Shown: one piece after another, positions 52,901-55,900 of the stretch
How the letters are laid out: the number at the start of each line of letters is the position of its first letter
How positions within the stretch are numbered: position 1 is the stretch's first letter
NCBI GenBank assembly: GCA_036566625.1
Contig: DATCWB010000576.1
Location: 1-58,483 of the forward strand
Direction of reading: 5' to 3'
DNA: 58,483 nt
Source: Pyrinomonadaceae bacterium
Lineage (GTDB): Bacteria; Acidobacteriota; Blastocatellia; Pyrinomonadales; Pyrinomonadaceae
Made by a program: the position numbers and the translations under genes
Notes under the pieces: model-generated
What the model saw: only the letters and a program-made list of their open reading frames with translations
What the model was told of the DNA's origin: nothing
Databases searched by the model: none

Positions 52901-55900
52901 TCGCGCTGGTAGCCATCCAGGTAGAAACCGCTCGGCTCGCGGCCGAACAGCCGTTCGTAGAAAGGTGTGCCACGGTAAGGCGACTCGTGATGCAGTGAGT
53001 CGTGTGCAAATTCAATCGGCTCTCCGCTCGTTCGCAGGATACGGCCGCGAATTCGATAATCCGGATTCAGCTCGTTCTCGCATAAGCGCCGTTCGACCGT
53101 TGCGGTGATGCGGTCGCCGGCGGAAACGAGAACACCCGGATCGAAGACCGGCAGGAAAACAGGTAACCAGCAATATTCATATTCCAGTGTATTAATCACT
53201 TCACCGGCGATAGTATGCAGGTTGAGCCAGACGAGAAATCCGTCGAGCCGGGCGTCCCGCTCGACGATCATCTCGATGGAGTGTGTCTCTTCGAGTGGCA
53301 GAGGCTTATTGAAATCGAGGTCTTCGAAAACCGCTGCGCTGGAGATAAGGTGCGTGCTGTCGAAGTTCTTGACGCAGAGTCGCAAATCGAAGGGGCGGCC
53401 GATCTCGTTGAAAATCCTGGATACGTAGGAGCCGGGCATTTCGTTGAAACCGGGATTCTTGAAGAGTGAATCCGGCATCGTCGTGGCAGCAATTTTAGTG
53501 ACACTCTGCGCGGGAAGCATGATGCCGTCGGGCTTCAGAAACCGACGCGCGTTGTTGATCAGGAGTGCTGCGCCTTCACATCCTCCGATTGGCCCGACAA
53601 TCTCCGAGACACAGACATCGGCAAGCTCAGGCAAGGTTACCTGAGTTGCGTCGCCGTGAATCAATTCGATTTTATCTTGCAGGCCGAGCCTGGCGACCAA
53701 CTCCGAAGCATCGCGAAATGCCTCGTCACCGATCTCTATCGCGTAGACTTTCCGCGCGCCGGCCTCGACGCAGAAACGCGCCAGGATGGCCTCCTTGCCC
53801 GTGCCCACTTCAACCACGACCTTATCTTTGACAGTTTGCCGGATGGCAACCTTGTAACTGTGATTGCGGCGTTCATCATGTGCCAGCGCGTGGTAGAGAA
53901 GATCGTCGTAGACAAAGTACTCGGCTACCGACGGCCACAACTCCAACTGCGTGCGACGTATTGAGTCCGGCTCCTGGAGTTGTTGAAACCTCGCTCGACT
54001 CAAATTGCCGTGGCGATCTCTGACCTCCAGCGCAGCCAGCGAGTCGTGGGCAATTAATGTCGGAGCGCTGAAACAAACGACCGGTTGCAGCAACGCTCTC
54101 GGCTCCTCGTCCAGCATTGACCCGACCCGGTGATGCTGCGCATCGAGACCGATGAGATACGAACCAGAGCCTAGCCGCAGTCCCGCCAGGAGAGCATAGA
54201 GACCCTCCTTAAGCGAGACCGGATAAAAACCGGAGGCGCGGGCGATTGGCGTTGCATCGCCAGATAAATTGTCAGCCACATGGCTCCACAGCGACCATGC
54301 GAAGTTGTAAACGCGCGCCGTTTTATCGGCGCGGAGTTCATCGGTCAGGGCTGTCACATACGAAGCCGCTGCCGAGATCGCGCCGACGGTCGCGCCACCG
54401 AAAAAACCGTTGGCGGAAGTGAAGGAGATGAACAATGAAGCCGGCCGGCTGCGTGCCATTGCACACAAGTGACGGCATCCACGGACATCGCCGGCAAGAT
54501 CGCGGTCCAGGGTTTCGGGTGTTTCCTCCGCTAACGCTCGTTCGCGGTACAGACCGGAAAGATGAACGAAGCCGTCGAACTCTCCCTCAAGACGCTCAAA
54601 CTCGGCGATCCGTTCGGGCAACTCGTCCGGATGCTGGTAGTACTCGACGGTCACACCTGCGGCCAGATTAACTTCCGTCCCGGCCTGCTCCCGGCGTGTC
54701 GAGTCGTCAAGTAACAGCACTCGCGCGCCATGTCTGGCCGCAAGGTAACGGGCAATCTCGACACCCACGCCGTCGAGACCACCGTGGATGACATACCGGC
54801 CTCCGTCCTTGAACGCAACCGAGCCGTTCAGATCGTTTATCGACACTTGCTCCAAGCGAGGCAAAAATCGCCCGTTCACACGCAGTGCGATTTCACGTTC
54901 GGCCGGATCGGCATTGAACTCCTCGACAAGCGCGGATTCCAGACACGGTTCATCCGGCGCATCGACATGACGGCACACGAGCCAGGGATGTTCGGCAGCG
55001 ATTGTCTTGAGCAGGCCGGAGATAACGCTGCGTTCCGCGATCAATGAATCATGCGCCGAAACAACCTGGGAACACGAAGTCAGAACGTCGAGTCGGATGG
55101 ACTGCCCGGCCTCCTTCGAATCGTTCAGCGCGCGAACCAGCGCCAGCAAATCCAAACCACACGCCCCCAGCGAATGATTGGGGTGCGCCCCGCCGTCATG
55201 GTTATCGGCCGTGCCGTAATTCCAGCAGTGAATGATTCGATCCGGAAAGCGTCCCGAGTCGCGCAAACTTTGTAACAGACGGTGATAATCGTCGTATTCG
55301 GCCGGTCTCAACTGATAATGGTCAGCGGCGACTGTGGTGAAGCTGTCGCCACACTCGACACGAACACAGCGCGTTCCGCCCTCCTGCAACGCAGCGCCGA
55401 GTGCCCGGCTGGTGGTCGTCTCAGCGGCCAGTAACAAAGCCGTCGCAGACCTCGGGTGAATGTCGGCCGCACGCCATTGCTTGCGCCGCCATGTTTTGCG
55501 GAAGAACCAATCCGGCATCGTGTTCTCATTTGCCATCAGCAGATCAACCCGCCGGAGAACGTCGGCAAATTCGCCCCGGTTGAAGCGCTCGGTTATACGC
55601 GAGCGGAGAAGCTTCCCGATTGGCGATTTGGGAATATCTTCTTTGGCTACGGGCAGCAGAAAGTCGGGCTTCAAGCCAAGTCGGCGCGTCAGGGTCTGGC
55701 GGATATTTCCCAATAGCTCGTGAAGATGAGAGTCTTCGCCGGCAGGCGTATGAAAGAAGATGGCTAGTTTCTCGGTTGCCGTTGACTCGGGCAAGACGGC
55801 GCAAGCGGCGCAGAAGCTGGCGCTGACGCCGGCCACTTCCTGAACCACCGCTTCGATTTCACTGTTATAGAAATTCGCTCCGTTGACAATCAGGCTCTCC

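Follow-up and report, generated by a model that had tools for sequence, protein, structure and literature searches.

The window analysed here is a single stretch of 58,483 nucleotides, contig DATCWB010000576.1 of assembly GCA_036566625.1, from a Pyrinomonadaceae bacterium of the phylum Acidobacteriota. On its minus strand lies a megasynthase open reading frame (ORF; 46948..57801, 3617 aa) that begins with a polyketide synthase (PKS) loading module. Inside this module the initial annotation had recognized a domain with the fold of protein arginine methyltransferases (PRMTs) and an intact double-E loop. The domain, hereafter the MT or M domain, occupies aa 1285-1610, which correspond exactly to nt 52972-53949. 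Its features are the following:

52972..53949, minus strand: PRMT-fold, S-adenosylmethionine (SAM)-dependent methyltransferase (MT) domain, aa 1285-1610, a type III M domain, from a family linked with O-methylation of Tyr
53854..53919, minus strand: PRMT-type N-terminal helix motif YFVYDDLLYHALAHDERRNHSY, the counterpart of YFxxY ... RT..Y in PRMTs, aligned to PRMT6
53779..53820, minus strand: SAM motif I VVVEVGTGKEAILA, a GxGxxA variant typical for type III M domains
53572..53607, minus strand: double-E loop SEIVGPIGGCEG with E1400 (nt 53602-53604) and E1409 (nt 53575-53577), ungapped against the PRMT6 double-E
53161..53175, minus strand: THW-like loop YCWLP, with the Trp retained and Cys at the His position

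The best Pfam methyltransferase model for this domain is PRMT5 (PF05185), at 30.7 bits against a cut-off of 22.9. The PKS C-methyltransferase of gene 2 and the nonribosomal peptide synthetase (NRPS) N-methyltransferase of gene 5, from which the domain had been set apart at the outset, belong to different Pfam families. When the 326-aa domain was searched against the PDB with phmmer, the best 60 of 98 matches (E ≤1) were solely PRMTs, with PRMT6 and CARM1 scoring E ~6e-16. The alignment places DVCVSEIVGPIGGCEG of the window on DAIVSEWMGYGLLHES of PRMT6 without a gap, so that S-E1400 and E1409 fall on the SEW...ES double-E residues at the identical nine-residue spacing. A profile of 38 family members matched PRMTs in the PDB at E 8e-33, and its alignment reaches through the β-barrel to the THW loop, where the Trp of the window's MT lines up with that of CARM1 and AtPRMT4. 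The motifs YAIE, FLKPDGIMLP and YCWLPVF are also present in the domain, along with VVVEVGTGKEAILA and SEIVGPIGGCEG. A relationship to PRMTs is far beyond chance.

Using the same 38-member family alignment as input, we obtained an AlphaFold2 model of the domain with a predicted local distance difference test score (pLDDT) of 93.7 and a predicted template modelling score (pTM) of 0.91. In a Foldseek search of the PDB, each of its best 50 matches is a CARM1 or a PRMT6 structure (TM 0.72-0.76 over ~330-345 columns), with no non-PRMT methyltransferase among them, and the match spans both the Rossmann half and the C-terminal β-barrel. The modelled domain is thereby confirmed as a complete two-domain PRMT fold with an intact double-E loop and a THW-like loop, as the initial annotation had claimed; the equivalence of its double-E loop to that of PRMTs rests on the HMMER alignments together with the global TM scores.

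With the type I PRMTs (PRMT1, PRMT6 and CARM1) the domain shares the Rossmann and β-barrel halves (TM ~0.75), the N-terminal YFxxY...R...Y helix motif, the acidic ribose-binding residue (in YAIE), the double-E loop with its spacing, and the Trp of the THW loop. It differs from them in overall sequence (21-24% identity), in the GxGxxA form of motif I, in the replacement of the THW His by Cys, and in its location in a megasynthase, where the substrate would be a small acyl group bound to a carrier. Whereas type I PRMTs act on the guanidine of protein arginine, the product-linked relatives of the window's MT point to O-methylation of a phenol. Context also argues against a protein-Arg guanidino substrate, since the domain is embedded ahead of a peptidyl carrier protein (PCP) and its relatives are paired with adenylation (A) domains carrying Tyr codes.

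Sequence comparison assigns the domain to a known family of assembly-line methyltransferases, the type III M domains. A type III M domain, Ms(O,Tyr,a8-a9), is an O-Tyr-methylating insert between motifs a8 and a9 of an A domain (Lundy, Mori, Garneau-Tsodikova 2020, PMC8341866). The type is defined by a GxG SAM motif with a conserved Ala two residues on (GxGxxA), and its representatives ThxA2, DidJ and VatN are all tied to O-methyl-Tyr (PMC8341866). For LynB3, the Tyr O-methyltransferase of lyngbyapeptin, a similarity of ~30% to arginine methyltransferases has been remarked (PMC10127204); in the literature that we searched, the PRMT relationship of type III M domains is mentioned only in passing. 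Further family members are CrpC (cryptophycin), LynB3 and LynB5 (lyngbyapeptin), and HcaA (hectoramide). NCBIfam holds no curated model for the MT, which is why the family goes unnamed in annotations.

Searching plasmids with tblastn provided anchors that are linked to products. The window's MT is 58.5% identical, at 100% coverage, to the MT of an NRPS in the cryptophycin cluster (L001 13341-14315), which is carried on pNsp_c of Nostoc sp. ATCC 53789 in the order PKS, NRPS, CrpD-like, P450, TauD, PanD, halogenase. This NRPS is CrpC, which reportedly installs 3-chloro-O-methyl-D-Tyr. At 49.7% identity and again 100% coverage, the next anchor is an MT on pTM3 of Tistrella mobilis (L002 8001-8984), placed between a Tyr-code A domain and an N-methyltransferase (N-MT). 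The pTM3 record is unannotated, so we only infer that this A-MT-N-MT module is DidJ of didemnin. Together with the published type III M domains, both anchors overturn the earlier view that PRMT-fold domains are not known from any characterised assembly line.

A homologue search with the window's MT returned 190 relatives, many of them fragments comprising an A-domain C-terminus, the MT and a PCP. Many of the aligned MTs have a8 and LVAYVVP upstream and LPxYMIPxxFVxLDxLPLTPNGKxDRxAL, then a PCP, downstream, which is the layout of an A domain interrupted between a8 and a9. Among species-representative genomes, at least 571 loci contain relatives of the MT, and those closest to the window's come from Pyrinomonadaceae and other Acidobacteriota metagenome-assembled genomes (78-89% identity). 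A sponge-symbiont (Entotheonella) origin, which a GC content of 59% and the likeness of the cluster to microsclerodermin assembly lines had hinted at, finds no support in these matches. Loci labelled L in this text are the 80 kept from that scan plus a few fetched otherwise.

We aligned 83 MTs, namely that of the window, those of 78 of the 80 kept scan loci and those of 4 loci fetched in other ways. Y19, R28, Y32, G49, G51, E72, S115 and E125 are shared by all 83 (MT-domain numbering, in which E116 and E125 are the double-E pair, W261 is the Trp of the THW loop and C260 occupies its His position). Y14, E116 and W261 are kept in 82 of 83, and the window has every one of these residues. Elsewhere in the THW loop the family has Cys or Ser in place of His, and Tyr or His in place of Thr. 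The window's SAM motif reads VGTGKEAILA, and its Ala, A54, recurs in 78 of the 83. An early worry that GTGKE betrays a degenerate SAM site is dispelled by this comparison, as GxGxxA is the normal SAM motif of the family.

The likeness to type III M domains thus extends over the GxGxxA motif, the SE..G.IG..EG and xCW loops, and a placement right before an a9/a10-like segment and a PCP. The partner domains differ. Instead of a Tyr-specific amino-acid A domain, the window's MT accompanies a keto-acid/McyG-type A domain and a dead ketoreductase (KR), and it probably sits in a pseudo-Asub domain, in a PKS loading module that feeds a ketosynthase (KS).

We extracted Stachelhaus codes for 62 MT-carrying A domains; the GrsA reference gave DAWTIAAICK, which checked the numbering. 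Codes of the Tyr or Phe type make up about 47 of the 62 (DASTVAAVC in 17, DASTIAAVC in 6, DAWTIAAVC and DAATIAAVC in 4 each, and others). Another 11 have the acidic codes DVEDIGAIT, DVENVGAIT or DVEDLGCIS. This acidic-code subgroup consists of L031, L032, L038, L047, L051, L053-L056, L066 and L079, with the MT at ~10001-10978 in most, and the nearest solved relative of its A domains is ApnA A1 (4D4G). ApnA A1 activates both Arg and Tyr. The MTs of the subgroup could be carrier-directed Arg/Lys N-methyltransferases, or they could be Tyr O-methyltransferases with an unusual A domain; a literature string search for an Arg assignment of DVEDIGAIT-type codes found nothing.

These codes bear on the proposal, made in the initial annotation, that the domain N-methylates a guanidino- or amino-bearing starter, with the double-E loop gripping the guanidinium as it does in PRMTs. 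The complete PRMT architecture, the presence of both glutamates and the existence of MTs within acidic-pocket A domains all speak for such chemistry. The loop is kept equally well in the Tyr-linked members, however, and in 82 or 83 of the 83 MTs whatever the partner A domain, so the motif does not imply a guanidino substrate. Furthermore, the window's own A pocket (IGWSLAASGK) lacks an acidic residue for a cationic side chain, and the closest product-linked homologues of the MT lie in O-methyl-Tyr modules. Six alignment positions of the MT split the Tyr-code group from the acidic-pocket subgroup, among them 118 in the double-E loop (V versus I/M/L) and 260 at the THW His (C versus S/N). At each of the six, V118 and C260 included, the window's clade agrees with the Tyr-code group, and in a neighbour-joining tree the window's MT falls among Tyr-code clades. 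We now regard a guanidino or amino target as highly improbable for this module.

Standalone relatives of the MT occur in Nostocales as ~430-aa proteins that begin with a TubC-type docking domain and are encoded between NRPS genes (L020, L030, L033, L036 and L023; MT at ~10001-10978, or 544-1521 in L033). In L023, the standalone MT lies downstream of an A(keto)-KR(active)-PCP module.

The remaining parts of the loading module, and the extension module that follows it, are these:

57397..57801, minus strand: Asub-like N-terminal segment, aa 1-135 (AAWVVP, LIPVSALALDDEGYVDSKVL), kept in keto-acid modules
55567..57219, minus strand: adenylation domain of the keto-acid/McyG type, Asp235 replaced by Ile, pocket code IGWSLAASGK
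54112..55434, minus strand: degenerate ketoreductase (KR0), aligned to the StsA KR
52777..52971, minus strand: post-MT segment with the a10-like motif ELPLTAEGAIDRDML, read from sequence
52579..52770, minus strand: carrier domain of the PCP type, FFELGGHSLL, Pfam PP-binding at aa 1678-1741, which would hold the starter
46948..52485, minus strand: first extension module of the same protein, by Pfam KS, acyltransferase (AT), dehydratase (DH), KR and acyl carrier protein (ACP)

Along the protein, Pfam gives AMP-binding at 203-598 with a DIP2-like C-terminal subdomain to 744, a KR-like region at 798-~1230, the MT, PP-binding at 1678-1741 and then KS-AT-DH-KR-ACP. The A domain has its best PDB matches in StsA (6ULW/6ULX, E 2e-125) and McyG (4R0M, E 2e-112), and its motif LPLDHIGSISDWH has Ile at position 235. 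The loading A domain of CrpA, which sits in a plain A-PCP loading module, shares 39% identity with the window's. The pocket code IGWSLAASGK shares W239, S/T278, L/I299, A301 and A322 with the Phe code DAWTIAAICK, and it ends in AASGK as in McyG. The pocket is thus free of acidic residues and aromatic-like, and the domain, having no Asp235, is neither L-Tyr-specific nor of the amino-acid type. A fatty-acid starter loaded by a fatty acyl-AMP ligase (FAAL) was ruled out as well, because the A domain scores 412-422 bits to StsA and 371-379 to McyG and at most 169 to true FAALs. The order acyl ligase, KR, PRMT-like domain, carrier that had been read from the ORF therefore stands in part: the PRMT-fold domain is there, the ligase is a keto-acid/McyG-type A domain and not a fatty-acyl ligase, and the KR is present but catalytically dead.

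The pseudo-Asub domain of StsA is built from two stretches, one at the N-terminus and one following the KR (PMC10510592). By analogy, aa 1-135 and the post-MT segment of the window's protein are probably the two halves of a split pseudo-Asub; the N-terminal 189 aa had no match in a sequence search of the PDB. MT homologues carry LPLTPNGKxDRxAL at the matching post-MT site. In the window, the MT is preceded by the KR0 rather than by a8 and followed by the a10-like ELPLTAEGAIDRDML and the PCP, with a LAAWVVP-type strand at the N-terminus of the protein. The A domain, the KR and the MT would accordingly all be inserted in the a8-a9-equivalent loop of the pseudo-Asub.

Several known systems resemble parts of this arrangement. 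The keto-acid A-KR-PCP modules of StsA (6ULW), CesA, CrpD module 2 and AerA have the same type of A domain, with Asp235 changed to Ile or Val, and the N-terminal and a10-like segments of the window resemble the split pseudo-Asub of StsA. The McyG and CrpA phenylpropanoid A-PCP loading didomains are alike in that they, too, start a PKS. The window departs from the keto-acid modules in two respects: its KR has lost both the NADPH motif and the catalytic Tyr, and an additional M domain separates this KR from the probable C-terminal half of the pseudo-Asub.

The loss is plain in the alignment to the StsA KR. The NADPH motif reads GGLDGVG (54763-54786) in the window versus GGLGGIG in StsA, and the active-site segment reads GAISAAAS (54361-54384) versus GAYCAANE, so that the catalytic Tyr has become Ile and the Asn has become Ala. 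Both motifs are intact in CrpD, StsA, L011, L023 and L029, whose KRs lie outside the domain layout seen in the window. To judge by these residues, the loading-module KR is catalytically dead. An active KR that would deliver an aryl-lactate starter was ruled out by the alignment to StsA, CrpD and others.

The A-KR-MT-PCP-KS architecture recurs in at least 10 other loci (L003-L009, L012, L034 and L039). They come from Acidobacteriota, Gammaproteobacteria, Alphaproteobacteria and further groups, with Methylobacter, Thiomargarita and Rhodospirillum among the hosts. KR degeneration as in the window was found in 9 of 9 aligned loci (L004-L009, L012, L034 and L039). L003, a frameshifted assembly, was left out of this alignment.

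L003 (5673-20969) is a homologous cluster on the metagenome contig ERZ25039489 of the ENA, with MT pieces 77-94% identical to the window's. Its megasynthase is split into many short called genes, which probably reflect assembly frameshift errors, not real pseudogenes. A different arrangement is seen in L011 (4066-9225), where an N-terminal segment, MT, A(keto-type), active KR and PCP are followed by a Cys-code NRPS module. The A code of L011, IGWSVAASGK, is one residue off the window's IGWSLAASGK.

We compared the ratio of nonsynonymous to synonymous substitution rates (dN/dS) of individual domains against three relatives. It was 0.05-0.09 for the MT and 0.07-0.09 for the KS. The KR gave 0.15-0.29, and the N-terminal segment, estimable against two of the three, 0.22-0.35. 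The low values of the MT, level with the KS, indicate selection of the MT as an enzyme, whereas the higher values of the KR indicate that it behaves like a scaffold.

This contrast bears on the idea that the M domain is itself an inactive scaffold or relic, kept like the neighbouring KR for the architecture of the module. The adjoining KR is clearly degenerate, and motif I of the MT does deviate from the canonical GxGxG. GxGxxA, though, is the form found in CrpC and in the inferred DidJ, whose clusters make O-methylated products, and every invariant residue of the SAM and substrate loops is present. The dN/dS of the MT is also two to three times below that of the KR, and its identity to the relatives (78-89%) exceeds that of the KR (46-77%). 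An inert M domain is very unlikely on this evidence.

Taking the fold, the family membership, the conservation, the dead KR and the type of A domain as direct results, we infer which acid serves as starter, which of its atoms is methylated and what the two glutamates do. On balance, we lean towards a functional M domain that para-O-methylates a 4-hydroxyphenyl starter on the carrier. The module would comprise, in order, the N-terminal half of the pseudo-Asub, the keto-acid/McyG-type A domain, the dead KR, the M domain, the C-terminal half of the pseudo-Asub, the PCP and then KS-AT-DH-KR-ACP. An aromatic acid, perhaps 4-hydroxyphenylpyruvate or another 4-hydroxyphenyl C2/C3 acid of that kind, would be adenylated by the A domain and transferred to the PCP. 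The KR would be inert and retained as scaffold. The M domain would bind SAM through GxGxxA, E1356 and R1312 and transfer the methyl group to the para-hydroxyl of the PCP-bound starter, much as its relatives may do with Tyr-S-PCP, the two substrates differing only at the α position. The Glu pair and the xCW loop, instead of clamping a guanidinium, would hold the phenol and remove its proton. The resulting p-methoxyphenyl starter would then be handed to the KS.

The α position deserves separate consideration. Because the KR is dead in the window's clade, an α-hydroxyl is argued against as the target, and the occurrence of the same MT and a near-identical A code with an active KR in L011 suggests that the target is independent of reduction. 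An oxygen at the α position could satisfy both versions if the M domain methylated the enol(ate) of an arylpyruvyl-PCP here and the α-hydroxyl in KR-active relatives, giving an α-methoxy (enol ether) starter. Such an oxygen exists in KR-active and KR-dead modules alike, the MT is repeatedly paired with keto-acid-type A domains (the window's clade, L011, and L023 with its standalone MT), and the standalone relatives that follow Thr-code modules suggest aliphatic hydroxyl substrates. Against this, all product-linked members (CrpC, DidJ, VatN, LynB3 and HcaA) methylate a phenol, and the window's MT sides with the Tyr-code clades both in the discriminating residues and in the tree. We know of no precedent for O-methylation of the enol of an α-keto thioester, and we rate methylation at the α-oxygen as unlikely. 

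Some observations weigh against phenol O-methylation in the window. The association of the family with O-methyl-Tyr rests on matching gene clusters to product structures; no solved structure exists for any family member, and no in vitro assay of one was found in the literature searched. The window's clade has signature residues of its own in the MT (L22, A23, E53, Y259 and F298). The A-domain code cannot separate phenyl from 4-hydroxyphenyl, and its W239 is Phe-like, not Tyr-like. McyG/CrpA-type loaders give C6-C2 starters through a one-carbon loss. Elsewhere in the family, the substrate of the acidic-pocket subgroup (DVE[DN]xGAIT) could be Arg. Three standalone-MT loci have an upstream module with the Thr code DFWNIGMVH. 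L013 (8612-10978) has its MT embedded in an A domain with the Val/Ile-like code DAVFIGGTL, followed by PCP-KS-AT; this MT groups with the standalone MTs in the tree and is an outlier to the Tyr association. The Thr-code neighbours and the Val-like code indicate that parts of the family may accept non-phenolic nucleophiles or oxygens.

We give some, but little, credence to a broader view in which the M domain acts on another nucleophile, be it the enolate oxygen of an arylpyruvyl thioester, yielding an unprecedented α-methoxy-enoyl starter, or a nitrogen, and in which the family may hold carrier-directed guanidino N-methyltransferases in its ApnA-A1-like acidic-pocket subgroup. If true, this would make the family a bacterial assembly-line branch of PRMTs with several chemistries. 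Literature searches on starters of the methoxyphenyl-lactate or methoxyphenyl-pyruvate kind, and on the tundrenone/Methylobacter cluster, brought up nothing relevant.

Downstream of the megasynthase, Pfam shows the rest of the window to be one co-directional hybrid cluster (nt 2186-46945). Gene 2 encodes KS-AT-DH-cMT-KR-ACP-KS-AT-KR-ACP, where cMT is the C-methyltransferase. Gene 3 encodes KS-AT-ACP-aminotransferase-luciferase-like monooxygenase-C-A-PCP (C, condensation) with the Asn-like code DATHIGEVC, and the gene after it KS-AT-ACP. Gene 5 encodes C-A-nMT-PCP-C-A-PCP-C-A-PCP-C/E, with the Gly-like code DILAFGLIA in the N-methylating module. The terminal gene encodes TubC-dock-C-A-PCP-KS-AT-KR-ACP-TE (TE, thioesterase) with the Gly-like code DILA-GLI. 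The other two A codes of the cluster are DAATVGEMW and DAWTASRVY. Two further reading frames lie at the end of the window:

1130-2161, minus strand: AspH/LpxO/OlsC-like hydroxylase of 343 aa (PF05118), with weak NCBIfam matches to acyl 2-hydroxylases
315-1070, plus strand: 251-aa ORF with no Pfam or NCBIfam match

The hydroxylase is a candidate for a hydroxylation of the chain. A protein identical to it occurs in the Logan assemblies of SRR3452787 and SRR3452784.

The domain order of the cluster resembles that of the microsclerodermin (msc) assembly line. As summarised in PMC6163206 from Hoffmann et al. (2013), the msc line of Sorangium/Jahnella has a loading module that is drawn there as ACL-ACP without an MT. 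Going by that summary, the two systems have in common a ligase-loaded aromatic starter; PKS modules that include one C-methylation; an aminotransferase and a monooxygenase for an α-hydroxy-β-amino acid; an Asn-like module followed by KS-AT-ACP (C2); a Gly-like A domain with an N-MT (sarcosine); two further residues; and a terminal Gly-like A domain with KS-AT-KR-ACP-TE. Compared with the same outline, the window differs in having an MT in the loading module, two A codes that are neither Gly- nor Trp-like, neither a halogenase nor an amidohydrolase within its bounds, and an acidobacterial host. It is a resemblance of domain order only. A p-methoxyphenyl terminus is present in some sponge microsclerodermins, and by analogy the likeness would fit a p-methoxyphenyl starter here, although it is no proof of one.

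What is new here is, first, the loading-module architecture of a keto-acid-type A domain, a vestigial KR, an M domain, a PCP and a KS, and second, the explicit full-fold relationship to PRMTs with a double-E loop kept throughout the family. A complete PRMT signature, double-E loop included, is normal for a large family of NRPS/PKS methyltransferases tied to O-methyl-tyrosine, and the motif alone does not predict guanidino chemistry. The confident model and the conservation of both glutamates offer a concrete hypothesis, in which the PRMT pocket has been re-used for O-methylation of a phenol. The loading module itself is of an uncharacterised type. Given the dead KR, its domain list alone would mispredict a hydroxy-acid starter; recognizing the type should aid genome mining for p-methoxyphenyl-type starters.

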